From IMG/VR virus record IMGVR_UViG_3300014205_000212, positions 10,107 to 74,106 of that record: a stretch of DNA of 64,000 nt. One strand, 5' to 3'. Every line of letters starts with the position of its first letter. Position 1 is the stretch's first letter. Made by a program: the position numbers and the translations under genes. Shown here in pieces: positions 1,826 to 44,800 of this stretch. A model generated the notes under the pieces. That model ran no database searches, had not been told where the DNA came from, and saw nothing but the letters and a program-made list of their open reading frames with translations. This DNA is from a virus (Duplodnaviria; Caudoviricetes).

Positions 1826-2068
1826 TTACGGCTGTGATATGCGATGTTTGGCGATTACGAGAACAAACCTATCAAAATACATAGAACGTGGACAATACAA
1901 TATTATGGAAACGATAAACTATTTATATGAATAAGAAAGAAAAAAGAATCCAAATTATCGCAATGCTTTACCAAAACATGGATAAAGTAGATGCAGATGA
2001 AACATTAAAACTTATTGATGAATTCAGCACTATGGCAGTAATAAATAATGCCGTATTACCGCATGTTA
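1826..2068 (+). repeat. attC-like site E1 (hybrid or degenerate, TTAC...GTTA)
   Basis: Left arm TTACggctgtgaTATGcgatgtttggcg does not pair with right arm aatgccgtattaccgcatGTTA. That right arm is 21/22 identical to the right arm of E15. Confidence 0.75.
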
Positions 2069-2187
2069 TAAACCGAAGGGAACTGTTAATTGATTTTTCT
2101 ATGAAAAGAAATAAAGCACCTGAAGAATTTAAGGCGCAATATGAGAAAGAAGTTGATGACTACTTAAAATCAATTAATAGTTTATAA
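1927..2187 (+). CDS. Cassette gene, hypothetical; starts inside E1
   Basis: NAVLPHVINR is encoded by the E1 right arm; the stop is the TAA of the next TAAC (2185-2188). Confidence 0.75.
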   Translation: MNKKEKRIQIIAMLYQNMDKVDADETLKLIDEFSTMAVINNAVLPHVINRRELLIDFSMKRNKAPEEFKAQYEKEVDDYLKSINSL

Positions 2188-2308
2188 CGGTTACAAATAT
2201 GAAACGGCAGGGATTACGTGCAAAACCCTATCAGCCGACTACAAATGATGAATAGTAGCACAAAGTATAAAATAAGCATTACGCCCTGCTGTTTTATATT
2301 TGATGTTA
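2185..2308 (+). repeat. attC-like hairpin site E2 (124 nt)
   Basis: TAACggtta-caaatatgaaacggcaggg pairs with ccctgctgttttatatttg-atGTTA, with G.T wobbles only. Confidence 0.92.
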
Positions 2309-2852: not shown

Positions 2853-2978
2853 TAACGTTGATAATATGAAAAGTTGGGGGATTAAAAGAGCAAAAATATC
2901 GGGTCGCAACCGAAGCCTTGACGGTAGCTGGGAGGTAACATACACCGCTGCACCCCCAATTTTTTATATTATGTGTTA
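2853..2978 (+). repeat. attC-like hairpin site E4 (126 nt)
   Basis: TAACgttg-ataatatgaaaagttggggg pairs with cccccaattttttatattat-gtGTTA. Confidence 0.92.
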
Positions 2979-3649: not shown

Positions 3650-4039
3650 ATGAAAAGAGATATTGATTGGAAAGGATTTCAAGAAAATGTAGAAACCTAT
3701 ATTAAAAAAAATAGAGGCATAGGTGCAAAGTTTTTAAAAATATTATTCGATAATTATTCTACAAAGGGTATAAAAAATTTGAATATACAAAAAACTGTAA
3801 AAAGTGATTTAGGTATTATTAGCGATAATACTTCTAACTTAGAAAATATTTTAGGAATGCTACACGAATTTAGGAATTGGAATAGGGAATGGGATATTTA
3901 CTTTGCAAAACACCCTAAAAATGTTGATGAGTTTGCAAAATTATTGTCAAAAAGATACAAAGTTAAACGTGTTAACGTTAATTATAAAAAATCGGTGAGG
4001 AGTTCGGAGCTACGGAACTATCAACTGATACAAAACTAA
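3650..4039 (+). CDS. Hypothetical protein whose 3' end reads through the left arm of E5
   Basis: The TAAC of E5 is out of frame, so the C-terminal NYKKSVRSSELRN is encoded by the hairpin arm. Confidence 0.6.
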   Translation: MKRDIDWKGFQENVETYIKKNRGIGAKFLKILFDNYSTKGIKNLNIQKTVKSDLGIISDNTSNLENILGMLHEFRNWNREWDIYFAKHPKNVDEFAKLLSKRYKVKRVNVNYKKSVRSSELRNYQLIQN

Positions 4040-4097
4040 TTTAGTAGCAAGTGGTTTAAAATAAGCACGATACCCCACTGTTTTTTATAATGTGTTA
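3973..4097 (+). repeat. attC-like hairpin site E5 (125 nt)
   Basis: TAACgtta-attataaaaaatcggtgagga pairs imperfectly with atccccactgttttttataat-gtGTTA. Confidence 0.85.
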
Positions 4098-4595: not shown

Positions 4596-4973
4596 ATGAA
4601 ATACGAAATTAAATATAAAGAACTTGAAAGTTATTTAACTTCTTTACCTGAAAAAGAATTTCAGGACAAAAAATATAATCCAAACGGAATTATTAAAGAG
4701 GCAGAATTGATGACAGATATTGACTTTTTTAAAAAAGATAAATCGAAATTCCCAATAAGTAAAGTTATTGATTACGGAATGCCATTTTTACTTGATGCTT
4801 TAGGCAATGATTTATCTATATGTATTTTAACTAAAAGAAAATTTAAGCTACCAACTGGAAGACCAATACAAGCTAAATTAGACCGTACAATTATATCAAA
4901 TTGTCGAAAAATATATGGAACACCTTTGAATGGATGCTGGGTAATACCTGAGCAGTTCGTGGTTTTAAAATAA
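4596..4973 (+). CDS. Cassette gene, hypothetical
   Basis: Between GTTAGCAGTT (4557) and AACTGCTAAC (4972-4981). Confidence 0.8.
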   Translation: MKYEIKYKELESYLTSLPEKEFQDKKYNPNGIIKEAELMTDIDFFKKDKSKFPISKVIDYGMPFLLDALGNDLSICILTKRKFKLPTGRPIQAKLDRTIISNCRKIYGTPLNGCWVIPEQFVVLK

Positions 4974-4977
4974 CTGC

Positions 4978-5101
4978 TAACCGTTGAAGCTATGACCAGT
5001 AAAGGATTACGGAGCGATGCACTATCCACCGATACTAAGCTGGATGCGAGCTACAACGTTTGATTAACCACCACAACCTTTATTGGTTATAGCTTGTGTT
5101 A
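4978..5101 (+). repeat. attC-like hairpin site E7 (124 nt)
   Basis: TAACcgttg-aagctatgaccagtaaagg pairs with cctttattggttatagctt-gtGTTA. Confidence 0.92.
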
Positions 5102-5147
5102 GTGCCAGTTATTTATTTGATTATCAATTTTTAAAAACAAAAATACA

Positions 5148-5714
5148 ATGAAGAAAATTAGCACACTTTACAAAAAAGACCCGAACGATTTAAGCAGGGT
5201 AATTAATGAAATTGCACCCGAAAATAAATGGGTAATTGATGGCGAAGGTATTCCGACACGCAAGTTTGATGGAACTGCAACCGCTATTATTGATGGCGAA
5301 TTATACAAACGATACGATGTTAAAAAAGGTAAGCAAGTGCCACTAAATGCGATACCATGCCAAGAGGCTGACGAAATTACAGGACACCACCCGCATTGGA
5401 TTAAATGCGACCGAAACAACCCAGCTGATAAATGGCATTTTGTTGGTTTTGATGCCTTAGAAAATAAAGAAGATGGAACTTATGAACTTTGTGGCGAAAA
5501 ATTACAAGGCAACCCAGAACATTTAACTGGACACATTTTAGTTAAACACGGAATAGAAGTATTACCAGTAACCGACTTTTCATTTGAAGGAATAAAAAAC
5601 TACTTATCAAATTCTGAATTAGATATTGAGGGTATTGTTTTTCATCATAAAAACGATGGGCGTATGTGCAAAATTCGCAAATGCGATTTCGGTATCAAGC
5701 GGGCTGTTTTATAA
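5148..5714 (+). CDS. Cassette-borne RNA-ligase-like nucleotidyltransferase (DUF5565-like)
   Basis: Motif I TRKFDGT (KxDG), GTYELCG, motif IV EGIVF, motif V CKIR; bounded by GTTAGTGCCAG (5098) and TTGGCACTAAC (5715-5725). Confidence 0.75.
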   Translation: MKKISTLYKKDPNDLSRVINEIAPENKWVIDGEGIPTRKFDGTATAIIDGELYKRYDVKKGKQVPLNAIPCQEADEITGHHPHWIKCDRNNPADKWHFVGFDALENKEDGTYELCGEKLQGNPEHLTGHILVKHGIEVLPVTDFSFEGIKNYLSNSELDIEGIVFHHKNDGRMCKIRKCDFGIKRAVL

Positions 5715-5721
5715 TTGGCAC

Positions 5722-5845
5722 TAACGGATTATATATGCGTTCGGTTGCTGACGCAAAACAGCACCAACTTAATTTAAAAAACAAAAGTAAAATGAAAGCA
5801 CAAGACAACAAAAAAGAGAAAGCAACTGACGTATATACGTTGTTA
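5722..5845 (+). repeat. attC-like hairpin site E8 (124 nt)
   Basis: TAACggatt-atatatgcgttcggttgct pairs with agcaactgacgtatatac-gttGTTA. Confidence 0.88.
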
Positions 5846-6001
5846 CCTGCCGTTTTAGATGAGATCATTGAATACATTGAAGATACTGAACAAACCATTG
5901 ATGGTGAATGGGGTTCGTGTAGAGACTTGAAAGAGTTGATTAGAGATAAACAAATGCCTGAATTATATGATAAGTTAATTGCTTTGAGAAATGGCAGGTA
6001 A
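5792..6001 (+). CDS. Cassette gene, hypothetical; starts inside the E8 loop
   Basis: ATG 5792 (MKAQDNKKEKATDVYTLLPAV) follows an A-rich tract; the stop is the TAA of TAAC 5999. Confidence 0.7.
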   Translation: MKAQDNKKEKATDVYTLLPAVLDEIIEYIEDTEQTIDGEWGSCRDLKELIRDKQMPELYDKLIALRNGR

Positions 6002-6035
6002 CTCACTTATATATACAGTTCAAAATATTGAAGTA
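5999..6035 (+). other. Array-terminal conserved site T1 (attI-like candidate)
   Basis: TAACtcacttatatatacagttcaaaatattgaagta is similar to the sites at 13048 and 24334; an imperfect inverted copy of the gttcaa...gaagt part lies at 6118-6134. Confidence 0.75.
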
Positions 6036-7101: not shown

Positions 7102-7707
7102 ATGAAATCATGGAAAGAACCTACAAAAGAAAGATGGGGAATGGATTATCGTCCCGGAATTACAGAAGAATTTTCACAACTAATTAAATTAGCTAAAGAA
7201 AAGATTGAGCCATTTTCATATAAAGAAATTTCAAGATATACTTATTACTTTAAAGTAAAAGGTGAGGAAATTTCGAGTGAATTTGATTGCTGCGATGATG
7301 AAAAATGTATCAAAGAAGCCAAAAAAGCTATAAGAAAACAATACGGGAAAAATACGCATATTGAAGAATGTTATTCGGATAATGACGAAGACCATGAGAG
7401 TATTGAAATATGTAGTATTTGTGGAAAACCTATGAATGAATATCTTACTTGGTGTAATTCAGAATTAGAGTACTTAGAAGAAAATAAACCTTGGGACGCT
7501 CAATTTTTAGCTGATGAAGGTTTTGTAATTGGCGTTATTTTAGATAGTACTCCAACTATGGATTGTAATATTTCAGATTATGCAAAATATCAAAAAGGCG
7601 AAACACTTCAAAAGGCATTACAATCAAGAGAAGAATTTTTTCAAAGAATCGGTAAATTAGCTCAATCAGTAATTGATGCAGACTTCGCTGTCTTAAATGG
7701 ACGGTAA
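7102..7707 (+). CDS. Cassette gene, hypothetical (CxxC-containing)
   Basis: 201 aa with CSICG; the stop is the TAA of TAAC 7705. Confidence 0.8.
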   Translation: MKSWKEPTKERWGMDYRPGITEEFSQLIKLAKEKIEPFSYKEISRYTYYFKVKGEEISSEFDCCDDEKCIKEAKKAIRKQYGKNTHIEECYSDNDEDHESIEICSICGKPMNEYLTWCNSELEYLEENKPWDAQFLADEGFVIGVILDSTPTMDCNISDYAKYQKGETLQKALQSREEFFQRIGKLAQSVIDADFAVLNGR

Positions 7708-7828
7708 CGGTGAAGCTATGACCAGTAAAGGAATGCGGGCTTCGTGCCTGTCAAAATAGTAGAAACTTAATAGAAAATACAAAATGAAAATTAACGCAGA
7801 AACCCCCAATTGCATAAACATATTGTTA
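7705..7828 (+). repeat. attC-like site E10 (124 nt, hybrid arms)
   Basis: The left arm shares 22 identical nt with the E7 left arm; the right arm cccccaattgcataaacatattGTTA is of another type. Confidence 0.8.
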
Positions 7829-8254
7829 TATGCTGCTTTTTCTTCTATTCCATTAGATATTGAAGGTTCAAATTTAGAAAATACTGGTTGGATTCCTTCC
7901 GAAAATGATAAAAAGTATATGGATGGAAAAAACTATTTACTTGCTATTGAAGAAGCTAATTCCAAAAATGCTAAAGTAATATTTAAAAATGTATCTCTAC
8001 AATGGGATAGTTGTGATTGCGGAGATTATTATGGTTGTTCGCATGGGAATTATGTTTATGATATTGACATAATAAATGAAAATAAAAAAATTAACATAGA
8101 ATATACCGATGGAGATTCTCTGGAATTTTATAACAATGGGAAGTCCTGTAAGATTCCAACAGCAGGAGCAACTATTTTTGATTTTATAAGAATGTGTCAA
8201 ATTTGTGAAATTGAATTAGAGCTAACAGATTACGCAGAAACTCTTTTAAAGTAG
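7784..8254 (+). CDS. Cassette gene, hypothetical; starts inside E10
   Basis: TPNCINILLYAA is encoded by the right arm and box; closing box GTAGCATATAAT (8251-8262). Confidence 0.8.
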   Translation: MKINAETPNCINILLYAAFSSIPLDIEGSNLENTGWIPSENDKKYMDGKNYLLAIEEANSKNAKVIFKNVSLQWDSCDCGDYYGCSHGNYVYDIDIINENKKINIEYTDGDSLEFYNNGKSCKIPTAGATIFDFIRMCQICEIELELTDYAETLLK

Positions 8255-8258
8255 CATA

Positions 8259-8280
8259 TAATTTATTTATATGTGCATAA
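8259..8280 (+). other. Degenerate array-terminal site T2
   Basis: TAATttatttatatgtgcata resembles TAACtcgtttatatgtatag of T3. Confidence 0.4.
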
Positions 8281-9954: not shown

Positions 9955-10358
9955 TAGAAGAAGAAGCATTAGAAGAAATAATAAAGTTAGCAAATGGTAC
10001 ATCAGACCCTGCTACAATAAAGGCTTATTATAAACAACAATTCTTTAATGGAAAGAAGATGCTATTTGATGGTACTATCATTACAGCACTACTTATATTA
10101 GAAAAATACAAGGCTTACACAGATTATTGGGATTCTTCATTTGGAAATAAAAATCCTCAATATATAAAATCTGTAGATAAAAAAATGTCTATTTCTGATT
10201 TCTTAGTAAAAGGAGAATATAATAAAACATTTATTCTTCCGGCAAGAAATAGAGATATATATCTATTTGGTACTAATAGTCTTAATGAACTTAAAGTAAA
10301 ATTAATTAATTTTAATAAAAGACTTAATGAAAGAAAGAACACTTCCCGAGGGAACTAA
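9951..10358 (+). CDS. Hypothetical protein upstream of the helicase
   Basis: 135 aa, overlaps both neighbours. Confidence 0.65.
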   Translation: MIEEEALEEIIKLANGTSDPATIKAYYKQQFFNGKKMLFDGTIITALLILEKYKAYTDYWDSSFGNKNPQYIKSVDKKMSISDFLVKGEYNKTFILPARNRDIYLFGTNSLNELKVKLINFNKRLNERKNTSRGN

Positions 10359-11709
10359 AATACCACCTCATGATTTAAGAATAGAAGAAACTATATTAGG
10401 TCAGTTAATGATAGAAGTAAATAAAAATACTATTAATGCTATTAGCATCATTAATGAAGATGATTTTTATAAAGAATCACATAAATTAATTTATAGAACA
10501 ATATCTTTATTATATAAACGAGATAATGTTTGTAATTTCATTATTGTATGTCATGAATTAATGAAGATTCAAGCATTAGAAATAGTAGGTGGTAGTTATA
10601 TTATAAGTACTTTATCTTCTAATGTATCTTCTACTTTAAATGTTATTTATCATGCAAGAATTCTTAAACAGTTATCAATTGCTAGAAAATTAATTGCTAT
10701 TTCATATAATGTTCAAACTTCTGTATATGAAATGAAAGATGTAAAAGAGATAATAGATACTTTAAATAAAGACATTAATAATATCTATAAAGATGTTGAT
10801 AAAGAAGATTCTATTGTCTTAGCTTCTAAAGTATCTGATGAATTAATGAAAGATTTATTAAATGATAATTTTGTATTAAATAAAAAGAATACAGGATTTA
10901 AAATTTTAGATAAAATAATTGGTATTACATTAAATAAAATATTATTAGTTGCTGGTCCTGCAAAACATGGGAAAAGTAAGTTTATAAGTATGATAATGAT
11001 GAATATTTTAGAAAAATATTCTGATGTAAGTATATTTTGGATTACATTAGAAGATTCTGCTAAAGATATCATTGCCGGTTATATTGCTTCTAAAATTTTA
11101 ATTACTCCTAAAGACATCATTGAAAGAACATATTCTAAAGACTGTAATTCTATTATTAAACCTCATATAGAGAAGTTTAAAACCTTTGATATAGAATTCC
11201 AAGAAAAAAGTGCTAAAGTGTCTCAATTTGGCATTAAATTCATTGAATTCTGTAAAATGCGAAAAGGAAGATTTAATATTTTAATAATTGATAATATGCT
11301 TTCATTATCTGATAAAGATGATTTTAAAGGTAATGATAATGGAATGTATGATTATATTATGCTTCAGTTATTAAATATTAAACAAAGGACTAATGCTTTA
11401 ATAATTCCTATTCATCATTATAGAGATGCTCAACAAGCAGAAGGAAAGATAGAAAGTGCATATAGACCAAGATTAATAGACATGAAAGGAACAGAAGCTT
11501 TTAGAAGAGTTCCTAATCAAGTATTACTATTAAATAATCCGGGAAAATATAAAGATTTAGTTATAGAATATAAAGGTCATAAAGACTTACTAAAGAGTAT
11601 CTTTATATGTGATACTGGTGCTAATAGGAATGCTTCCGATGATGATGATAGTGCTTTAATAAGATTCTTTCACACACTAGAATTTAATATTTTTGAAGAA
11701 ATAAATTAA
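10327..11709 (+). CDS. dnaB: Replicative DNA helicase, DnaB family
   Basis: N-terminal PPHDLRIEETILG, Walker A AGPAKHGKS, LIIDN Walker B region. Confidence 0.92.
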   Translation: MKERTLPEGTKIPPHDLRIEETILGQLMIEVNKNTINAISIINEDDFYKESHKLIYRTISLLYKRDNVCNFIIVCHELMKIQALEIVGGSYIISTLSSNVSSTLNVIYHARILKQLSIARKLIAISYNVQTSVYEMKDVKEIIDTLNKDINNIYKDVDKEDSIVLASKVSDELMKDLLNDNFVLNKKNTGFKILDKIIGITLNKILLVAGPAKHGKSKFISMIMMNILEKYSDVSIFWITLEDSAKDIIAGYIASKILITPKDIIERTYSKDCNSIIKPHIEKFKTFDIEFQEKSAKVSQFGIKFIEFCKMRKGRFNILIIDNMLSLSDKDDFKGNDNGMYDYIMLQLLNIKQRTNALIIPIHHYRDAQQAEGKIESAYRPRLIDMKGTEAFRRVPNQVLLLNNPGKYKDLVIEYKGHKDLLKSIFICDTGANRNASDDDDSALIRFFHTLEFNIFEEIN

Positions 11710-11733
11710 CGGTGAGCGTATGAAATCGTGTTA
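11707..11733 (+). repeat. Collapsed attC-like site E11
   Basis: TAACggtgagcgTATGaaatcgtGTTA; its TAA is the DnaB stop codon. Confidence 0.75.
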
Positions 11734-12132: not shown

Positions 12133-12338
12133 TAACGGCTGCGGGTGTGACATCGGTTTTTTTGCGGATTAACAACTAAAATTTAAAAATATGGTACAGA
12201 TAGTAGAACAGACAAAGGAAGAAAAAATGGCAATGTATATGAAATTGTCTAAGAAGCAAATAGCAGAAATGCTTATTAATTGCAATAACATTATAACAGC
12301 ACTAACGCAAGCAAAAAACTGTGTTATACCTGCTGTTA
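12133..12338 (+). repeat. attC-like hairpin site E12 (206 nt, long loop containing a gene start)
   Basis: TAACggct-gcgggtgtgacatcggtttttttgc pairs with gcaaaaaactgtgttatacctgc-tGTTA. Confidence 0.88.
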
Positions 12339-12436
12339 TGGGTGAGTTAACTTGCGATAGTTGCGGTTGCCATCCAAATACAATATATCAAACAAGCAAG
12401 GGTCGGTTTTGTGAACGGTGCAATCCAGCAAGTTAA
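12191..12436 (+). CDS. Cassette gene with C-terminal CxxC...CxxC; starts inside E12
   Basis: CVIPAVMGE is encoded by the right arm; CDSC...CERC. Confidence 0.7.
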   Translation: MVQIVEQTKEEKMAMYMKLSKKQIAEMLINCNNIITALTQAKNCVIPAVMGELTCDSCGCHPNTIYQTSKGRFCERCNPAS

Positions 12437-12757: not shown

Positions 12758-12882
12758 TAACGGTTCGTGTATGACCCGTTTGGGATTAAATAGTACAAAC
12801 TTTCAAAATGGAACAAATGAATATAAATGACTTAGACTTTCAGCAAACTACCGAACCCCAAATGGGTTATGACACGGTGTTA
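12758..12882 (+). repeat. attC-like hairpin site E14 (125 nt)
   Basis: TAACggtt-cgtgtatgacccgtttggg pairs with cccaaatgggttatGacacg-gtGTTA, leaving one extrahelical G on the right arm. Confidence 0.92.
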
Positions 12883-13050
12883 TCGGCAGGTATTTGTGAT
12901 ACTTGTTCTATTCCTAAAATGATGAATACAGGCGATGGTATAAATGAACCATCTGACCCTATTCTTTATTGTCATAAAATGAAACGTGAAATATGTCCAG
13001 AACCACCAGAGGATAGGATGGTCGAATGTCGGTTTTATACTTGCCGATAA
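12808..13050 (+). CDS. Cys-rich cassette gene; starts inside E14
   Basis: PQMGYDTVLSAG is encoded by the right arm; the stop is the TAA of TAAC 13048. Confidence 0.7.
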   Translation: MEQMNINDLDFQQTTEPQMGYDTVLSAGICDTCSIPKMMNTGDGINEPSDPILYCHKMKREICPEPPEDRMVECRFYTCR

Positions 13051-13153
13051 CTCGTTTATATGTATAGTTCAAAAAAATGAAGTAGTCTATATATTAAATA
13101 GTTATATGTTTTATTGTATTCATTTTATATAATTATACTTCAATTTATTGAAA
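13048..13153 (+). other. Array-terminal conserved site T3 with downstream imperfect inverted repeat
   Basis: TAACtcgtttatatgtatagttcaaaaaaatgaagta; inverted copy tacttcaatttattgaaa at 13136-13153. Confidence 0.75.
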
Positions 13154-23505: not shown

Positions 23506-23633
23506 TAACGGCTGGCGGTATGCGGTCGTTGCCGAACTATCAAATTAGTAATAACTTAAATACGAGAACAAAATTATGAATACAGAAAAAAGTATCAACG
23601 AAGCGGAAGGCAATGCCGTATTACCGCTTGTTA
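23506..23633 (+). repeat. attC-like hairpin site E15 (128 nt)
   Basis: TAACggctg-gcggtatgcggtcgttgcc pairs with ggcaatgccgtattaccgc-ttGTTA, with single-base bulges. Confidence 0.9.
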
Positions 23634-23944
23634 CCACCCGTTTTTTATTGCTCAGTCTGAAATGGACTAACAAAAAAGATAAGTGGTTTACGTTTTGGCG
23701 TGAAAATTCAGCAGGGTATTGCTGGTTCAAAGAATGGTGTGGACTTTATGATATTGAAAAAGCAAGAGAAACGCACGGACACGACAATACTATTATGGTT
23801 GATGGATTCCTTATTAAACACCTTTGGAAAGAAATTGAATACGAAGGTAAAAAACGTGAAATACTTCCAAATACGGAAGAGGTGCGTAAATTTTTATCTA
23901 TTCAACTTCGAGATTTAAAAGCATTGCACCGCACTACTCATTAA
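23576..23944 (+). CDS. Cassette gene, hypothetical; starts inside E15
   Basis: GNAVLPLVTTR is encoded by the right arm and box; closing box ATGGGTGGTAAC (23945-23956). Confidence 0.8.
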   Translation: MNTEKSINEAEGNAVLPLVTTRFLLLSLKWTNKKDKWFTFWRENSAGYCWFKEWCGLYDIEKARETHGHDNTIMVDGFLIKHLWKEIEYEGKKREILPNTEEVRKFLSIQLRDLKALHRTTH

Positions 23945-23952
23945 ATGGGTGG

Positions 23953-24042
23953 TAACGTTTTGCGTATATACGAGGTACGCCTTAACGATGAATTTTAAAT
24001 TACAACAAACGCTTATAGGCGTATCTTGTATATACGCTGTTA
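23953..24042 (+). repeat. attC-like hairpin site E16 (90 nt)
   Basis: TAACgtttt-gcgtatatacgaggtacgcc pairs with ggcgtatcttgtatatacgc-tGTTA. Confidence 0.92.
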
Positions 24043-24333: not shown

Positions 24334-24450
24334 TAACTAGTTTATATATATAGTTCAAAAAAATGAAGTAATAGATTTATTAAGGCTTTCAACTTAGTTT
24401 TTATAATTATTTTTATACCTATTATATTTTATTACTTCATTTTTTTGAAC
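24334..24450 (+). other. Array-terminal conserved site T4 with a perfect 20-bp inverted repeat
   Basis: TAACtagtttatatatatagttcaaaaaaatgaagtaat; gttcaaaaaaatgaagtaat (24353-24372) is inverted at 24431-24450. Confidence 0.78.
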
Positions 24451-24475
24451 CTTTTAATAAAAATAAAAAAATTAA

Positions 24476-29106: not shown

Positions 29107-30540
29107 TTATAATTTATTATATATATTTTTATTTAGATATAATCTATTTAATGGTGTTGAATTATTATTATAATTATATTTTAGTGCATATTTTAAAACT
29201 TCATTAGTATAATCAACATCTTTATTTTTAGCATAATCATTTTCATTTTTAAATTTACCTATTGATCTACTTTTTGCTGGAGAATTATGTTTTGTAATAG
29301 CTCTATATAAGGCTGATGGATTATCATAATTTTTGTTTTTAAAATATTTATAATTATCAGATAATAATTTCATTGTATAAATATATGAACCATATTCATT
29401 ATCTATATCTTTTATATTAAAATATTGTTTTATATTGTTTAAAGTAGAAGGATCAAAATTAGTATCATATTTTATTCTACTTAATCCTTGAGATGTTTCG
29501 CTATATTCTTCATTTTTTGGTAAAAAAGTATTTGCAATTGTTTTATATAATGAAGACATTGTTTCATAAGGTTCTCTTAAATCAATTCCTATTTTAGTAA
29601 ATGATTCATCAAATTTTGTTTCTTTATTTATAATACCTAATGTTGCACGTGTTAAATCTTCAAATTCTGAATCAGATATATTTAAATAAGAAGCTATTTT
29701 ATTTTTATTTGCATTCGCATAATTTATAATATTATTTTCATATTTATTTGATGATGTATTAGTTAATTTTTCTTTATCATAAATATAATTTGTTGATGAT
29801 AATTGATTATAATCAGGTCGTATTACTTTTGCTACTTTATAAAATGGAAAATTATTTAATTCATTATTTTTAACTGTTGAAGTATAAACATGACCTTCAT
29901 ATTTATTACTTAGATTATTCATTTTATGTATATTATGTTCAATATCATATGTTCCATCATTATTTATTTTAGATATAAAAGCTGTATGAGTATTTCCATC
30001 TCCATATTTATTAGCTTCTTTTTGATAATTACTATAACCACCAGTATTAATTAGTACTACATCTCCTACTTTATAATCTTTATCTATTAATTCACCATTT
30101 TTTATATTTTGTGATAATTGCCAAGCATTTCCATATAAACCTAATTTTTTTCTAAAGTCTTCTTGTGATATATTTGAATTACTAATTCTATAAATTTCTT
30201 TTTGTACATAATCAGAACATTGTCCTTCTGTGCATTTTGTGCCATTATCTTTTTTTACAGGTTTCAATTGTAATTTTCCAGTATAGGGTTTATCATTATT
30301 TTTATTTGCGTTTATTTTATTAACTAAAGATGTAATATATTCTTTTTTATCTTGAATTAAAATAGGAACAGAATTATTTACATAAGTTTTATCTCTTATT
30401 GATATTTCTTTTTTTGGTATAATATTATTATATAATTCTTTCTTTGGAATTTGATAATTAGAAGTATTTAATTTAAAATTAATAAATATATCTTTATTAC
30501 TCAAATCAATTCCTTTATTTTTTAATATTGGCTCTGGCAT
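29107..30540 (-). CDS. Two-domain peptidoglycan hydrolase (CHAP/NlpC-like plus lysozyme/SLT-like)
   Basis: QCSDYV...GNAWQ...GDVV...HTAFI...IEHN in the N-half; GIINKETKF...SQGLSRIK in the C-half. Confidence 0.65.
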   Translation of the reverse strand: MPEPILKNKGIDLSNKDIFINFKLNTSNYQIPKKELYNNIIPKKEISIRDKTYVNNSVPILIQDKKEYITSLVNKINANKNNDKPYTGKLQLKPVKKDNGTKCTEGQCSDYVQKEIYRISNSNISQEDFRKKLGLYGNAWQLSQNIKNGELIDKDYKVGDVVLINTGGYSNYQKEANKYGDGNTHTAFISKINNDGTYDIEHNIHKMNNLSNKYEGHVYTSTVKNNELNNFPFYKVAKVIRPDYNQLSSTNYIYDKEKLTNTSSNKYENNIINYANANKNKIASYLNISDSEFEDLTRATLGIINKETKFDESFTKIGIDLREPYETMSSLYKTIANTFLPKNEEYSETSQGLSRIKYDTNFDPSTLNNIKQYFNIKDIDNEYGSYIYTMKLLSDNYKYFKNKNYDNPSALYRAITKHNSPAKSRSIGKFKNENDYAKNKDVDYTNEVLKYALKYNYNNNSTPLNRLYLNKNIYNKL

Positions 30541-35856: not shown

Positions 35857-38800
35857 TTAACAATTAACTTTTTGTGTATTTGTGTTTTTAAATTCTGCAA
35901 ATGATATTTCAGTATTTAATATTCCATCTTTATTCATTGTATTATTTAAAGCATTATATATTTCTCCTCTTTTATTTGCAATATAATTCCATATTTCATT
36001 TATAGCTTTAGAATCATTAAACTTTATATTATTATTATTTAACATAAAATCTCTTACTGCTTTTTCAGATGATAGTCCAGCAACTGTACAAATTATTTCT
36101 TCAACTAAATCTCCAGGAGTATATTTAATATTATTCCTTTCAAATTTCTGTTTTATCATTTCAGATAATTCATGATTTTCATTTATCATAGTTACAGCTT
36201 CTTCTACTAATTCATTATATTTTGATTTATCTGAAATACGTAATGTCTTAAACCATAAATGTGCTATTTCATGTACTAAATCTGTCGTTAATACAATATC
36301 GGAATTAACATATATTTCTCCATTATGAACTAAAGCTCTTGTATTAATAGGTCTTCCTAAATGTTCATTCATTTGTTCTGTAGTAAATATATTAATCTTT
36401 AATCCTGGTACCATGCTTTGTAAATATTGTATAAACATAGTTAAATTTTCTCTATTCAATCTTAATCCATCCATAAATTTCAAGTCAGTACTATCTAAAG
36501 AGAATTTACTATTTAATTCTTTTATCTTCTCTAATAGATTAGCAGATTCTTCATTTACATCTGCTTTAACAAATTTAACTGTTGTATTATCTATTGGAAC
36601 AGCTTTAATTAAAACTCCTGTCTTTGTAGAATAAACAGATTTAGGATCATAATTATATCCATTTAAAAATGTCTTTATGATAGGAATAAAATTATCCTTA
36701 TTCATATCAGATTCTTCTTCTGCACTAAATACTTTTATTAATTCAAATGATGTAGCCTTTTTTATGACTTTATCTGTATCGACTTGATTATTATTAACCC
36801 ATACTGCATTAGTGTCTAAATACAAGTTATCTAGCGATTTCTTAATGTGTTTAAATTGATAAAGCTTTTTGTCTAAATAAACTTTCTTCAATACTACATC
36901 AGGTCTTGCTCCATAAATATCTGTTGAATGTTTTTCTTTAGAATAGAAGTTAGAACCTCTATAACTATTAAACATTATATCTGATAATTGACTTGCTATA
37001 TTATCTCTAAAATTCTTATCTGATAATTTAGATTCAAATGCTTTTATAGATTCTGAATAATTTTTCATCCAATCTACTCCCATCACATGAAGAATACTTC
37101 CATTTATGAATTTTAAATCTCTTTGTATTATTTCATAAATCTGCATTAACTCTTTTATTTTATTTGGGAAACTTCTAAATTCATCTACATATTTCTTAAT
37201 AGTATTTTCATTTATTTCCATACTATTTCTTAATATCAATGTCTGTGTTCCTTCAAAACCTGTAGTTTCTATTTGAGAAAAGAAATCACTTCTTCTTAAT
37301 TTATTTAACTGATCAGGAGAAAAATTATATTCCGGATATTTTTCCATAATTTGTAAGTCAGTTAATTCTTTTACATCATCTCTAAATGTTATAAAGAATT
37401 CTGGAAACTTAGATATAAATAATTCTCTATCTGATAATAATGATAAATTTAATTTTTGTAAAATATTTTCATTAGAAGAATATTGTCCAAAGATATTTAG
37501 TTCTTTAGTAGATAAATCAAATGTTCTATCACTATAATATTGTTTAAAATATATATCATTTATAGGTTTTGCAAATAACTTCTGAAAGTTTATCATATTA
37601 TTTTGATAATCCCATTTTTGTAATTCATTTCTTCTTAAATGATACTGTTCTATTTCTTTTATAGCATCTGAATACATATAGAAATAATCTTTTTCTAAAT
37701 CTCTTTGTTGACGTATAAGAGAAATATTTTTCATAAAGTGTGGAAAACTTCTTGCTATCTCAACTAAATTACCATTTGAATAAATATTTCTTTCTCTTCT
37801 AATTAATGCTTCTGTTAATAATTCTCCTTTACCAATATTAGAAGGTCTTACTTTTATAACTCTATCAACATAAAATTTAGATTCATCATTAGTCCATTTT
37901 TTAACTGATATTATAGGTTTATCATTTATATCTGATATAACCCCTTGTTCATTATAAGATACTATTACAGGAAGAATATTAAGTCCAGATGTTTCTTTAG
38001 TTATATCAAAATTATTAACTGTAGAAACATTAAGATTAAGTAATAATAATTTATCATAAAGATTTAATTGGTCTTTATTAGCTTTTGCCTTTGATTCATA
38101 AATAGCATTACCACTTTCATATTCATTATTATAATTATCATAAGACTTTTGTGTCATAGTTTTTAAATCATAAATTCTAAAACTACCTTTCTTATCTACG
38201 GTAATAATATCTAACTCTCCAGCTACTCCGATATTATCGCTTTTTATTCCTTTAATTTCACCTTCTAATTCTCTGCTCTTTAACTTAATATTAGATGCAT
38301 AAACTTTCTCTCCACGTAATTCAAATCCTTCTTTTAATGATTTTAAATATGTAACATATTTATCAAATACATCTTTAGAAGTAAATGCAGATGCATAATC
38401 TTCATATTTCAATGATACGCCATTAAAATACTTTCTTAATATTTCATCTGACATATTACCTACTTCAATTGCTACTGATTTTACAGAAGTTATTTTTTTA
38501 CCTTTTATAGTAGATAGATAATCTGAACTCCTTTGATAATAATATTCTATTTCACCTTCTGTATTTCTATCTACATAATGAGTTTTATCTGAAGCCAAAG
38601 AAACATATTGTTGTTGCTCAATCATTTTCTTAACTACTTCTGTTGTATTATAATTATATGTATCTCTAACTATAGTAGTTCCTGAAGATAATCTTTCTTC
38701 TGCTAATTTAGCTCTGTAATATTCATTATCAGATAATTTAAAATTCTCTTCATGATTATTGGATTGCCATTCTTTATTATCTAATAAATCATCTATCGAC

Positions 38801-41800
38801 ATACCCATCTTTTCTATCTCACTTATTGTCGAAGCAAATTCAAAATCATTAACTTTTAAACCATTTCTTGTACCTACTACTGAACCAAATCTTCTAATCC
38901 ATTCTGATTTACTTACTATGTCTTGAAGTGTGGTTAGAAGCTCTGTATTCTCTTTTATGATATCATCAATATTTGATAAATCTTGTTCATCTAATTCAAT
39001 TTCTTCTTGTTCTCCCATTAGAGCAATTTTCATCTCATTGAATTTAGAATTAAGATATTTATAATGAAGTGGGAAAGTTTCTTTTATAGACTTTCCAAGT
39101 TCTTCTTTATGGAGAATAACTATTTTTCCTTCTTTAGATCTACTCAATACTTTATTAATTCGACTATCTACATGAGTTTTATAGGCTTCTATATTCATTA
39201 AAGATAAATCACCACTATCTATAATGTTTAAAGCATTCTCCATGCCTCTTATACTCTTTATTCCTTTTCCTGGACCTATAGGACTTTCATAGTTTTCTAT
39301 ATTATCTCCAAATACATATAACTTATTTGGATTATTAATTACTACTTGTTTAGTTATAGTATCTCGAGTTACAAATATTTTAGCTTTATCATAGCTTTGT
39401 TTATATTCTTTCTCTCTTTCATAAATCCTTTTAGTATTAGATTCAATATTTAATAAATATCTATTTATAATATCTAAAATTCTATGTTCTTGTTTGCTCT
39501 CTAATACATTAAATCCTTCTTTAACATCTGCATAAACAGATTTTATTATAGGTTCATTGAGGAATAACTTTATTTGAATATCATTATATCCTAGCATTAA
39601 TAAGATAGGAACTATTGGAGATGTTGTTTCATCTACTCCCATCTTACCTAATGATGAATTTTTAATATTATCAATAGCTAATACAAGATAATCCCCTATT
39701 CTGATAGGTATAGACTTTAACCCTTTTACTTTAGATAATGATACTATATCTTTAAATCCCGGCATTAAAGAAGATAATTGTTCTTCTTTTAACTGCATAA
39801 GATATGATACTGTAGATAATGATTTAGCAAGTATATCAATAGACCTTAATCCGGAATTAGTCATTTCATATTGACTAATCATCGTATTATAAAGATTGAA
39901 TGATTTATTTGCAAATCCTCTATCTCTTAATTTTAGATATTTTTTTTGTTCCTTTTCAGTAAGATTATTAAAATCTTCTGTTTCTGTTACCTTAATACTA
40001 TTATTAGCTATATCATTTATAGCATCTACTGATGATTCAAGTAAAATATTTTCAGCATTTTCTATATTATAAACTGATTTTATTTTCTCAATTATGTAGT
40101 CATTCAACTTATTATATGAATCTAATTCTTTTATATCCGATAATATTGATATTCCAGATGCTTTTAATGAAGCAGAAGCTGACTTATAATATACCTGTAA
40201 TTGGTCAATGTCAAAGTCACTATCATTTAATATTGTCAATTTAGGATTTATATAAATAACATTTCCTTTATCTTGTATAAAACCAATAATCTTTGCAGGA
40301 ATACCAAATCCAAGTCTTGAAGAAGGTACACGTACTAAATATAGATTTAAACTATCTTCAAATGTTTCTAATGCAGTTATATAATCTCCTAATGATAATA
40401 CTTCTTTATCTTCATTTCTTAATAAAATGGTCTTCTCTCTATTTATTACTGATGTTTTTAATTCTTCTACTATCTTTTCATCTATAAGTGTATGAGCAAC
40501 TTTTTTTAGATCTCCTTCTTTAGTAGTGTAATATAAAAATCTTGCATCATTAATATTTTCTGTTTCTAAAAATCCATATTTCTTAAAATGTGAATACGAT
40601 GCCACTACTTCAGCTTCTTGTAAACCTTCTTTAGTTATGTCTAATGTCTTTAAATCTCTTACTTTAAATTCTCCAAAGGTTCCATTCTTTTTTGCTTCTG
40701 TCAAAGTAAGATTATCTATAGTGCCAAATTCCTTCTCTATTGAATTAAGAAGTCTTGTTTGACCATTTGCATCTTCAAAGATTAATATTCCATCTCCACT
40801 TAATTGTGTGCTTCTAATACCATTAACTTTCTGTCTTATTAATGATGATGTCATATAATTCCTTATAATTTGTATCAAAGGTATTCTTACATTGTTTGTC
40901 TGTAATGATAAAGTCTTTGTTGATAATACTTCTCCTAATGCTCCGGCATACTTACTTCTATTTATAGATGATAGTCCAGTAGTTCTTAACCAACTATCGA
41001 AATCATTTCCTATTTCTTCTATGATATTTGCATTTTCCATATCATAGATTAAAGAGAATGCTGTAAATATATCATTAGCATTATCTTTATTAGTTTCTTC
41101 TCCTGTACCTATAATAGATAGTATCTGATGCATTAATTGAACATTCTTTGTATTCTCTATATCTTGATAAGGGTTTAATACAAATCCTAAATTTCTTGTA
41201 TTGAATTCTCTTCCATATAATCTTTGAGTAACAACTTCGCCTTTATCATTTGTAGCATATATTCCTTCGAAATTAAATGGATTTACTATTTCGGTTCCAG
41301 ATTTACTATTTGTGGTTCCGGCTATACCCCAAGGAATATTAGACTTAATGATTTTTTTATTTTCATCTTTATTTAAATCTTCAATAAGCATATCAGATGC
41401 TTTCTCTATAGATTTAGTAGATGCAAAATACTTCATGAATTTCGCTCTTCCATTAAATGTATATTCTCCTAAATCATTTTCCTTGAAACTATCAATATTA
41501 TCTTGATCCCATGAAAATAACATACTATCTAACTTAATTCTATCAAGTAGATTTATATTATATGATTCGGTGGTTATGTCTTCCGAAGAATGTTTAATTG
41601 TATGATGATTATCTGTTACATAATCATGATCAACTAATAATGTTTTATATACCTTACCTTGAAAAGGAACATTCGTTTCTCCACCAAAGTTTTTTATAAT
41701 TAATCGTGAGAATATAGGAAAGGATGTCATACCACCATCGTTTCTAGGAATAGATTTACCTAACTTTTCATCTTTGATATATGTGTCATTATTATATCCT

Positions 41801-44800
41801 TGATCATCTATGATATAATATTTTGCTTTTAACTCAATACCATCTTCCGATATACTTTCTCCTATATTAGCATAATTAGCCGGTGTAGTTGTAGGTCCTA
41901 AATATTTAGTTTGCTTTGATAAATCTGAAAATGCTGTTGTATGATTCATTATCAAAGGCATTATATTTTGGTTAGTAAACATATATGAAAAGAAATGACC
42001 TTTTAATAAAGGATTTAAATTATTATTCTTATCATAATATACTCCACCATCTACTCCATTTAGACTTGCTACATCTTTAGGTAACATAGTCTTTAATTCA
42101 TATAGTTTATTTGTATATTCTCTATATGTTAAAGCAAATAATTTATCTCTATTTGATGTTGATTTATCTGATTCCCATTTAACTGAATTCTCATAGTTAA
42201 AGACTCTATTATAATTTAATTTAGAGTTTTTAATATATGATTGATATGTTAATGCTAATCCCGGAAGAATAATTGTTTTAATTTTTTCTTTACCTGTTAT
42301 TTTATCTACTTCTTTAGTTTTAGAAACAATATAATCTTTACCATCTTTAAGATTTAATAATACTGCTTGATAAAAAGCTTTTTTATTTTCTTCTGATAAT
42401 CTATTTTGAAAACTTTCAAAGGCATTATATAATAATAAATGATTACCTGGTTTAAATATATCTTTTTCGTCAGATAATAAATCAGTCATTTCATTTGCTG
42501 AAAATAATTTAGTATCTAAAAGATATTTAGAAAATCGTTTCCATCTTCTTGTAGATAAAGAATTTTCTCTTTTTAATCTTTTAAATTCTAAATCTACATG
42601 ATTGTTAATTAGATTATCATTTAATTTAATACTTTCTATTTGACCATTATTTAATACAGTATAGAACATTCTTTCAGTTCCATTATTATCAAATATAATT
42701 TCTGCTTTAAATAATGATTCTGTATCTGATACTGTATTCAAGGATAATGATAATCTTTCTAATTTTGATGCAGAAGATTTCTTTACACTCTCTATAAACA
42801 TTCCGAGCATCATTTTATTCAAATCTATAGATGTTGGCTGTAATGTACCTTTATATCCTTCTATTCCTTTAAATGGCTTTATATATTCTAAAGTCATAGT
42901 ATTTTTATGATTAGAAGAAGTTCCTATGATAGGATATAATAATTCCCCATTGTCATCTACTAGATTGCTTGTTAATATTGCCTGTGTTTCATTATCATTT
43001 AATTCAGTTTTTATATCTTCCATTACTTGTTTTGGATTATTCATAATCCTTGATAATGAATTTTTCTGTATCAACTTAAATTCTCTTGTGTTATCTTTTC
43101 TTCTTATCATTGAGATTCTATCATATGGTCTAATTTGTAAATCCATATCTGCAATGACATTTAGAAATGTATATAGGTCTGTTGGTTTATGAAAATCATT
43201 TCCTACGAAATTATCATACTCTGATGCTTCTTCATCCATCATTTTCTGTTTATCACTAACAGATGATTTCTCTCCATAAATACCTATAGTCTTTTTATAT
43301 TCTTCTATTTCATCATTAAATACATTAAGATTTTTAACATCTTGATTATATAATTCTTTTATTGCATCAGACATTTCAGGAGCATTTTCTCCAAAATAAT
43401 CTTTATATGTATCAGAATTTCTTAATTCTTCTATTCCTAAAGTTTGATTTATATTGTTATATGTTGCCTTAAACATATTTAATAAACCATTAGCTATGAA
43501 ATTTTCACCTATCTTGTTTTTAGGTGCCATAGTTTTAAAATTAGGAATTATTTGTTTAACTCTTAATTCTGTTGCTTCGCTATCTTTTAATAAATTAAGA
43601 AATGTTGTCGGAGCTATTCCATTTAATCCAAATAATTTCTTTAACTTTAATATGTAGAATAAAGCATTTGATTTAAATTCATCTGTTAATTGAACAACTC
43701 CATCTTCAGTTGTAATTAATTTAATTACATTATTACCTAATATTATAGATAGTGAATCTGATGTAACAATAAATTGTTTATATTTTTTACTTACAAATTT
43801 ATTCATAATTGACTCATACATTCTATCATTGAATCCAAACATATGCATAATCATTTGTTGTGACATCTCATTAGTTAATGATGCAACATTTGTATTATTA
43901 ATATTAGTAGTAGTAACTATCTCTCCATTTTTAGTTTGTTTTACTTCTGCAGTAAATCCACTTTGTAAATGCAATGAATTATTCAATGAACCAAAATGAT
44001 TTAATATATTTTCTAATTCATCTCTTCTTAATTTAGATTCCTTATCTTTTCTTATATCTGCTTGCATGATATATTTCTCAAAAGAAACCTTCTCTGTATC
44101 ATTAATAACTACATTAGTATCAAATAACCTTGCAATTAAATTATATGCTACTTGTGCCCTTCTTGTAGTTATAGGTTGCTGTTTTACATATTCTAATATT
44201 TCATCTTTAAATTCTAATAAAAATGATTTTTCTTTTAATCCTCTTTTATTAATTCTATCAGATATTTCATTTATCAAAGATTCAATATCATGTTTAGAAA
44301 AGAATGTTTTATTATCCCATCTACCTAATTTAATTTTACCATTGAATGCTTCTATGTTTCTATATGGTAAAGTTTCTAATATAAGTTTTAGATTATTTGA
44401 AATTAAATCAGCCGGTTTAAATTGTTTACTCCATGTCATTGCATCAGTAGTTTTCATTCTCTGCAATGTTTCCGGATTAGTATCTGATACTATATCAAAG
44501 AAGATAGCATCAAAGACATCTTTTTTAGATAATTGAAATCTTAAATATTTTTTAAAATCTGAATCTGATTCAATATTTTTAGCTTGATCAAAATTTAACT
44601 CATTTAAACTATATTCTTCAGAACCTATATTTACTTTATATTCAGCATCTACTTCATTATCTTTATAAAACTGTAATAGATTAGAATATATATCTGAAAT
44701 ATTATTTCCTTTTACACTAGATAAAGATGAATAGAATGATTGTTGAACAAAACTATGAGCTATTTCATTTCTTAAAGATTGTACATTTCTCCCAAGTAAT

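Follow-up and report, generated by a model that had tools for sequence, protein, structure and literature searches.

The focus cassette

We analyzed a 64,000-nt stretch of viral DNA, hereafter the window, which comprises bases 10107-74106 of a 74-kb linear IMG/VR virus record (contig G000). At window positions 5722-6035 the + strand carries a hairpin resembling the attC sites of integrons, a small gene that begins inside the hairpin loop, and an attI-like site that closes the array to which the gene belongs. The features of this focus cassette are as follows; covariance model scores come from a model built from 48 members of the hairpin family described below.

5722..5845, + strand: attC-like hairpin of the focus cassette, 124 nt (covariance model 59.5 bits, E 3.5e-9)
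5722..5725, + strand: left box TAAC, the putative crossover region and upstream limit of the mobile unit; its left flank varies in every context
5792..6001, + strand: cassette gene, 69 amino acids (aa); ATG in the loop, stop codon provided by the TAA of TAAC 5999-6002
5842..5855, + strand: right box GTTA and R-box CCTGCCGTTT, opening the cassette body; complementary to the Y-box at 5989-5998, with one G.T pair
5989..6002, + strand: Y-box AAATGGCAGG and closing TAAC, the downstream cassette limit; 10/10 pairing with its own R-box
5999..6035, + strand: attI-like site TAACT-N2-3-TTATATATA.., closing the focus array; a shared motif

The site at 5722-5845 reads TAAC, a spacer of about 5 nt, the left arm, an A-rich loop of about 70 nt, the right arm, a spacer of 1-4 nt, and GTTA. 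The right arm and GTTA (5842-5845) encode ..VYTLL.. of the focus protein, and the ends of the cassette are matched, with R-box CCTGCCGTTT pairing with Y-box AAATGGCAGG. We found 28 homologues of the focus gene, nearly all with an in-loop start and a YTLLPA junction peptide. The focus protein has no in-frame ATG from GTTA to Met55, and a relative that lacks the hairpin (P0017) has a different 31-aa N-terminus, joined just before VLDEII. We interpret the region as one cassette of an integron-like gene-capture system that is shared by Flavobacteriaceae and phages and in which the hairpin travels 5' of its gene, and we assign this interpretation a probability of roughly 0.75.

The upstream hairpin stays with the gene

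Integrons capture promoterless genes; in the textbook arrangement the gene lies upstream of its attC site and is expressed from a promoter in the integron platform. Whether the focus hairpin belongs to the gene before it or the gene after it is a question of polarity. Complementarity between the two ends of a body (R-box against Y-box, at least 9/10 pairing) is present in 60 of 102 bodies, and it cannot decide polarity because crossover at G|TT and crossover at AA|C both predict it. What decides is the hairpin that stays with a gene when the gene has moved. Exact 17-18-nt arm words recovered 34 viral contigs, about 30 of them A+T-rich contigs with genuine sites. After filtering, we had 119 sites, of which 114 begin with TAACG and most are 122-128 nt long.

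One case is the gene at 23576-23944 (122 aa), of which four short metagenome contigs carry copies with 91% or 76% protein identity. Across its five contexts (the window and L003-L006; 76-100% identity), the same upstream hairpin type and loop are present, and the three 91% copies have a loop variant of their own in common. To the left of TAAC the sequence is unrelated in all five, and after the closing ..GGGTGGTAAC there are five different continuations, namely four different hairpins and one attI-like sequence. The 76% copy has compensatory changes in its arms, and its encoded peptide reads LHGV in place of LPLV. The focus gene behaves in the same way. In L095, L101 and L104 it retains a near-identical upstream hairpin of a type (G-type) found only with the focus gene family, between flanks that are unrelated left of TAAC and after ..GGCA(G/A)GTAA(C/A). 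Across 12 focus-family loci, upstream-hairpin identity is 0.78-0.95 in close relatives, and the left flank and the downstream 100 nt are at the background identity of 0.5-0.65.

An all-against-all comparison of the 119 sites gave the same picture. Fifteen pairs that share only the downstream body have hairpin identities of 0.79-1.00, and seven pairs that share only the upstream body have identities of 0.50-0.60; an eighth pair of the latter kind is the same context ended by a contig edge. In neither the junction comparisons nor the all-against-all comparison was a downstream hairpin conserved with its gene (0 cases), and because no gene keeps its downstream hairpin we reject the classical arrangement for the phage cassettes.

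Under that arrangement, the hairpin would belong to the upstream gene, the cut would fall at G|TT on the + strand, and the preceding cassette would lend the in-loop ATG to whatever follows. Some observations fit this. One hairpin type (J-type) occurs ahead of at least eight unrelated bodies, each with its leader, MNTEKSINEA-GNAVLPLV or a ..LHGV variant, joined in frame, and the similarity among them stops at GTTA. RNA ligase bodies have differing upstream hairpins, and the shorter spacer beside GTTA would make the 3' arm the longer unpaired side of the - strand, which is also the case in classical bottom strands. However, J-type hairpins are not linked to any upstream body, arrays finish in TAAC and an attI-like site rather than in a hairpin, the recombinase lies at that end, and the - strand would have two C.A mismatches at conserved positions. 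Together with the absence of any conserved downstream hairpin, this makes classical polarity highly improbable for the phage arrays.

Array ends and the linked recombinase

The arrays have a common layout of repeated hairpin-body units followed by a Y-box, TAAC and TAACTnnTTTATATATA, a motif that recurs over unrelated contigs. The array-end motif TAACT-N2-3-TT(T)ATATAT(A) is present at three ends in G000 and in L003, L007, L009, L017, L031 and L040. In addition to the site that closes the focus array, the window has copies at 13048-13084 and 24334-24370 and a degenerate copy near 8259. Almost all of the matched-end bodies that we examined follow a hairpin or a right-arm-like sequence, and an attI-like site precedes none of them. 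An inverted copy of the right part of the attI-like site (GTTCAAAAAAATGAAGTA) lies 55-75 nt downstream of it and gives a second hairpin (24338-24373 with 24430-24465); the same arrangement is seen at 13068-13085 with about 13134-13152. This part also holds a mini open reading frame (ORF), ATG AAG TAA or ATG AAG TAG.

A conserved TAACT..TTATATAT motif closes arrays, and in one phage it abuts a recombinase gene. The complete 71-kb phage record G007 contains a compact version of the whole platform (L120:771-1974), with the recombinase on the cassette strand: a hairpin with an in-loop ATG, a body, CAATTGTTGC-TAAC, TATTATATATCTG, about 30 nt, and, at L120:1174-1974, a gene for a 266-aa tyrosine recombinase. 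The cassettes of this platform have in-loop starts and are followed by TAAC plus TATTATATAT ahead of the recombinase gene. A second viral record, G006, has two hairpins and then a split recombinase gene. The 266-aa enzyme is 51% identical over 206 aa to the recombinase beside a bacterial array in genome G152. The array recombinases of G150 and G152 are 378-401 aa long and 35% identical to each other, and L183:4814-5950 encodes one such bacterial enzyme; in the bacteria the recombinase gene sits at the 3' end of the array as read on the TAACG strand, with a gene for an rve-domain transposase in between in G150. In G152, the Y-box of the first cassette is followed by CAAC and then directly by a short palindromic sequence that lies immediately downstream of the recombinase gene; the sequence between first cassette and recombinase is AAC-led and differs from the phage attI-like motif. 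Because the attI/recombinase end is the same in phage and bacteria, the TAACG strand would be the bottom strand by the classical definition.

The array-linked enzymes match NF040815 ("tyrosine recombinase/integron integrase") at 170-232 bits. Their matches to TIGR02249 score 139-199 bits, below the cut-off of 265, and fall in two stretches with the middle of the model left out. Among solved structures, XerC-like 4a8e and XerA 5hxy are the closest to them, ahead of IntI4 2a3v. A search of 301 sampled genomes with TIGR02249 at E<=1e-40 gave no match, a threshold that was too strict because the array-linked enzymes match this model at weaker E-values.

A strand-specific hairpin with a conserved 5' tetranucleotide, insertion beside TAAC without duplication, and Y-box/R-box pairing that resembles guide pairing also recall elements of the IS200/IS605 type, in which an HUH single-strand transposase would cut beside a tetranucleotide at the hairpin foot. 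Such elements use strand-specific hairpins, a cleavage-site tetranucleotide and a single-stranded intermediate, and their transposition depends on a Y1 HUH transposase and on hairpins at both ends. The units described here have one hairpin each. PF01797 (Y1_Tnp) was found in only one of the five array-bearing records searched (one of four complete genomes, the other three lacking it), where it is not near the array, and it is absent from G000. The arrays in phage and bacteria are flanked by a tyrosine recombinase instead, and we consider an HUH mechanism barely credible.

Strand asymmetry of the hairpin and gene polarity in bacteria

In an alignment of 48 sites, compensatory changes are present at 15 of the 17 stem pairs, and the TAAC and GTTA boxes are invariant. 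Box flanks such as GCCTAAC and GTTAGGC occur, in agreement with the attC-type consensus RYYYAAC / GTTRRRY. At two positions the stem has a G.T wobble with G always on the 5' arm (48/48 and 36/48 aligned sites), and because of these two conserved wobbles the TAACG strand folds better than its complement. Across 103 sites, the mean folding energy is -14.2 kcal/mol for the TAACG strand vs -12.0 for the other strand with DNA parameters (a gap of -2.25), and -31.6 vs -25.5 kcal/mol with RNA parameters (a gap of -6.1). The TAACG strand is lower in energy at 92 to 94 of the 103 sites (92 with DNA parameters). These family sites were oriented by arm energy, an orientation that matches the TAACG start in 114 of 119. 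The window sites, whose orientation is fixed independently by the coding strand, also favor the + strand, at 10/10 sites with RNA parameters and 8/10 with DNA parameters.

The initial annotation had proposed from the window alone that most arm mismatches are G(left).T(right) on the + strand, that the coding strand folds better, and that the unpaired spacers are 4-5 nt beside TAAC and 1-3 nt beside GTTA. The position-specific wobbles and the strand energies bear out the first two proposals, and the measured spacers at window sites, 3-6 nt and 1-4 nt, are close to the third. Its premise that integron integrases recombine a better-folding attC bottom strand containing AAC agrees with published measurements: classical attC bottom strands are 2.12 kcal/mol more stable, have more G:T mispairs, and carry AAC in R' (Nivina et al. 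2016, PMC5027507). This bias is close to the 2.25 kcal/mol found here.

The hairpin family is not confined to viruses. Of 151 sampled genomes from the bacterial family that includes a Lutibacter metagenome-assembled genome (MAG), 129 contain covariance model matches. Of 65 bacterial cassettes, 57 have their longest ORF antisense to the TAACG strand, two have it sense and six are ambiguous, whereas in the viral and metagenome loci and G000 the cassette ORFs are sense to this strand in 55 of 55. In bacterial arrays of this hairpin family the arrangement is the classical one, in which the top strand carries the gene and the site follows at the gene's 3' end, and the comparison gives independent support to the earlier proposal that the phage cassettes are the reverse of classical ones.

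This comparison also bears on the function of the asymmetry. One interpretation is that selection acts on the mRNA, in which the stem-loop would present the start codon or act as a processing or terminator signal, with cassette mobility a separate matter. Phage hairpins are without exception transcribed as sense, RNA parameters give a wider energy gap than DNA parameters (-6.1 vs -2.25 kcal/mol), and the ATG lies in an A-rich loop. On the other hand, the G.T-bearing strand is the non-coding one in 57 of the 65 bacterial cassettes, so the wobbles are kept regardless of which strand is sense, and the boxes, own-end complementarity and adjoining recombinase indicate DNA recombination. Selection at the mRNA level alone therefore appears very unlikely. 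T4-type promoter stem-loops and N4-type hairpin promoters were considered and dropped in view of the own-end complementarity, the covarying 17-bp stem and the linked recombinase.

An evenly balanced proposition, in our judgment, is that Flavobacteriaceae and their phages share one attC-like site family and one Xer/IntI-like recombinase family and load cassettes on opposite strands, such that the phage pool is distinct and its site is also a portable translation-initiation module made up of loop, ATG and leader peptide. If this is true, a cassette crossing between a host array and a phage array, in either direction, would arrive antisense, a built-in polarity barrier or switch between the two gene pools.

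Several bacterial arrays are large. One-directional chromosomal arrays in Flavobacteriaceae (L171, L174, L180-L183) have about 20 sites per 20 kb. The G150 array runs from about 72.5 to 148.6 kb of G150:C1, at least 76 kb, and the G152 array covers about 39 kb (G152:C1, approximately 1.943-1.982 Mb). Arrays of 4-6 family hairpins are present on the MAG contigs L127 (Prolixibacteraceae) and L128 (Lutibacter), which may be chromosomal, prophage or mis-binned phage DNA. Our literature search found no description of integrons in Flavobacteriaceae.

Predicted start codons within the hairpin loop

An in-loop ATG with an ORF that continues through the right arm and GTTA into the body is present in 48 of 103 distinct site-plus-body contexts, and most of these ORFs are 66-157 aa long. 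Similarity of the 23576 protein to phrog_23101 begins at residue 21, just after GTT. Translation is predicted to start at these in-loop ATGs. Genes without an in-loop start, such as the RNA ligase gene, begin 20-60 nt after GTTA and have their own A-rich leader.

For the window, the initial annotation named six genes that start in a hairpin loop and read through GTTA (1927, 5792, 7784, 12191, 12808 and 23576). All six are confirmed as beginning within a site and continuing past GTTA; the sites 1826-2068 and 7705-7828 are poor hairpins. The broader statement that the site supplies the initiation region and N-terminal peptide could apply to the 48 contexts above and to only six of about 16 window sites. 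Also as proposed, several genes stop at the TAA of TAAC; the ORFs that do so are 1927-2187, 4596-4973, 5792-6001, 7102-7707, 10327-11709 and 12808-13050.

Proposed mechanism and points against it

Three independent lines, namely the junctions, the array layout with its recombinase end, and the gene strand, support the inverted polarity that had been proposed for these cassettes, and variant junctions fall at the left box TAAC, not at the + strand G|TT. On the + strand, the mobile unit would consist of the C of TAAC, the hairpin, GTTA, the R-box, the gene, the Y-box and TAA. The TAACG strand would correspond to the classical attC bottom strand, and it is probably recombined in single-stranded form, near AA|C, by a tyrosine recombinase of the Xer/IntI-like kind; the partner would be an attI-like site (TAACT..TTATATATA) or another hairpin. 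We infer both the single-stranded substrate and the identity of the acting enzyme; a cut at AA|C would be expected by analogy with classical attC sites. Because the window encodes no recombinase, the enzyme would be supplied by another part of the phage genome or by the host. Since phage cassette genes lie on the TAACG strand, the hairpin loop would be transcribed ahead of the gene, and in about half of the cassettes it would provide an A-rich initiation region, an ATG and a short leader peptide.

Several observations weigh against this interpretation. No tyrosine or serine recombinase was found in the 74-kb window contig or in four complete array-bearing phage genomes, and in an all-against-all blastp comparison of six array-bearing genomes no protein was common to more than three. 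The family has no conserved bulge or extrahelical bases on the 3' arm, and the longer unpaired spacer lies on the 5' arm, unlike in classical attC sites. G.U pairs would stabilize an mRNA too, so the strand asymmetry alone is no proof of a DNA substrate. Because TAAC is invariant, the cleavage nucleotide cannot be placed within the box. Of six phage sites, IntI1 failed to recombine just one, and this was P12002L_attC1, a member of the family in a Polaribacter phage (Qi et al. 2023, PMC9892861). J-type hairpins are about equally alike whatever body follows, an estimate made from the sequences rather than computed; linkage for the gene concerned therefore rests on hairpin type, shared loop variants and the non-conserved downstream side. 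Finally, RNA ligase bodies occur with different upstream hairpins, with the break at GTTA, in the window and L041 (90% nucleotide identity) and in L074 and L067 (92%), and L044 pairs the hairpin of L074 with a body closer to that of L050.

Because RNA ligase copies mix hairpins and bodies in this way, the two can re-assort, via rare exchange at the GTTA box or by homologous recombination. A more far-reaching version of this explanation is that hairpins and bodies are separate modules with no fixed polarity, for which exchange at one box is about as frequent as at the other or in which homologous recombination shuffles them at similar rates. The GTTA breaks and mosaic bodies of the RNA ligase set, the chimeric or truncated hairpins at 7705 and 11707, and the loss of left arms in L107 and L109 all fit such exchange. 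Against it, linkage to the upstream hairpin is seen repeatedly and linkage to the downstream hairpin never, and the polarity of viral genes is uniform (55/55). We regard fully separate modules as unlikely and prefer the interpretation that the hairpin moves with the gene that follows it. This linkage appears to be the rule for recent copies without being absolute: among focus-gene relatives, L107 and L109 lost only the left arm and L090 lost the whole site.

The RNA ligase gene (phrog_14301; window 5148-5714, L041-L089) is both a cassette and an ordinary phage gene and is found on 49 viral contigs. Most contigs carry it outside a cassette context, and the cassette copies are mosaic; the set of 49 loci was dropped as a clean test of linkage for being too mosaic.

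A focus cassette without its left arm lies directly 3' of a gene for a 434-aa integrase in L096:213-2362 (also in L097, L098 and L100). In L096 a terminator-like hairpin and then tandem CCTTGCCCTTA and CCCTGCCCTAA repeats follow, which looks like the end of an integrated element. We considered this integrase as the cassette recombinase and rejected it, since its setting is a prophage end with tandem repeats and it was judged to be an ordinary integration enzyme.

Relation to known cassette systems

Like classical integrons, the system described here has imperfect hairpin sites with ..AAC and GTT.. boxes, complementary cassette ends, one strand that is more stable and richer in G:T pairs, and arrays of tens of cassettes beside a tyrosine recombinase and an attI-like site. 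Its sites are uniform in length at about 124 nt, as sites are within a lineage of classical integrons (Vibrio cholerae repeats, 123-126 nt). It differs from them in that the phage gene lies on the bottom-type strand, which places the site 5' of the gene, where it can encode the gene's start. In addition, the linked recombinases score below the IntI cut-off and apparently lack the IntI-specific insertion, the hairpins have two fixed G.T wobbles and no conserved extrahelical bases, and in the bacteria the recombinase gene has the same orientation as the cassettes.

Inverted cassettes are known from chromosomal integrons, where most are toxin-antitoxin cassettes; they have the gene on the attC bottom strand, are a minority, and carry their own promoters. 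As in those cassettes, the site in the phage arrays precedes the gene on the coding strand. In contrast to them, all viral cassettes here are inverted (55/55), and the loop itself bears the initiation region.

Clusters of attC sites lacking integron integrases (CALINs) have been reported in virulent phages, including Polaribacter phage P12002L, and attC sites in divergent directions were reported in phage CALINs (PMC9892861). The hairpin family is present in P12002L, and the site described there as P12002L_attC1, which has no integrase with it, is a short member of the family. Two methyltransferase genes flank it, it is on their coding strand, the body downstream of it (a methyltransferase cassette) has the matching ends GTTAGGCAC/GTGCCTAAC, and the strand that was cloned as "bottom" is the TAACG strand. 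That study differs from ours in that 5'-hairpin cassettes, in-loop starts and flavobacterial chromosomal arrays are not described in it, and our literature search found no other paper on any of these three. On the - strand of P12002L (L143), family hairpins of about 50-58 nt at 38035-38090, 38879-38936 and 30008-30056 lie upstream of DNA methyltransferase/modification genes, and two of these three hairpins in a cultured phage contain an in-loop ATG.

The window itself has five clusters of attC-type sites in 1.8-24 kb and no PF00589 match across the 74 kb of its contig, and it corresponds to the definition of a CALIN (at least two attC-type sites close together with no integron integrase nearby). 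The phage site leads its gene, would be co-transcribed with it and often encodes its start, and can thus be described as an integron-type site used in reverse. Such a site suggests a route by which a phage could insert accessory genes into existing operons without a promoter or ribosome-binding site. These findings bear on strand choice in folded-DNA recombination, the origin of cassettes and cassette exchange between phage and host, and they indicate that cassette arrays can become very large, reaching at least 76 kb in one genome, beside a recombinase that falls below the integron-integrase cut-off.

Other sites in the window and the contig setting

A scan for TAAC..GTTA found ten strong hairpins, all on the + strand of 1-26 kb, of which seven span 124-128 nt. 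No strong hairpin of this kind was found in 26-64 kb or in 12 composition-preserving block shuffles. The window sites score 40-90 bits with the covariance model, and there are weaker or damaged copies as well. About 14 TAAC...GTTA hairpins, the focus one included, lie on the + strand of 1.8-24 kb, and the window has about 16 sites overall. Besides the focus hairpin, these include the following.

1826..2068, + strand: degenerate site; poor hairpin, left box TTAC, ORF 1927 starts inside
2185..2308, + strand: family hairpin, 124 nt, 89.6 bits
2566..2653, + strand: family hairpin of the short class, 88 nt, by covariance model
2853..2978, + strand: family hairpin, 126 nt, by covariance model
3973..4097, + strand: family hairpin, 125 nt, by covariance model
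4978..5101, + strand: family hairpin of the type without in-loop start, 124 nt, upstream of the RNA ligase cassette 5148-5714
7705..7828, + strand: chimeric site, 124 nt, 54.4 bits; gene 7784-8254 starts inside
12133..12338, + strand: long-loop family hairpin, 206 nt; gene 12191-12436 starts in the loop
12444..12565, + strand: family hairpin with the left box mutated to TAAT, 68.3 bits
12758..12882, + strand: family hairpin, 125 nt, 84 bits; gene 12808-13050 starts in the loop
23506..23633, + strand: family hairpin, 128 nt; gene 23576-23944 starts in the loop, leader MNTEKSINEAEGNAVLPLV
23953..24042, + strand: family hairpin of the short class, 90 nt, by covariance model

In the site at 7705-7828 the left arm is like that of the 4978 site and the right arm like that of the 2853 site, and the arms are unpaired. 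A truncated or degenerate site at 11707-11733 begins as a left arm that almost immediately gives way to GTGTTAG and a leader similar to 5096-5145. Variant boxes were seen as one example each: TTAC at 1826, TAAT (in the 12444 site and near 8260), and CAAC in other loci.

We found no match among GenBank phages by megablast with window 1-25 kb or by blastn with two hairpins. Rfam at gathering thresholds assigned no family, a helicase-based search for close relatives found none, and the exact 22-nt attI-like motif had no match in the viral contigs searched. CheckV estimates the 74-kb record to be about 39% complete. The G+C content of the window is 25%; its first 26 kb hold small + strand genes, and the remainder holds large genes on the - strand. 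Among the latter is an ORF of 5514 aa at 35857-52401, which is very large for a 74-kb contig.

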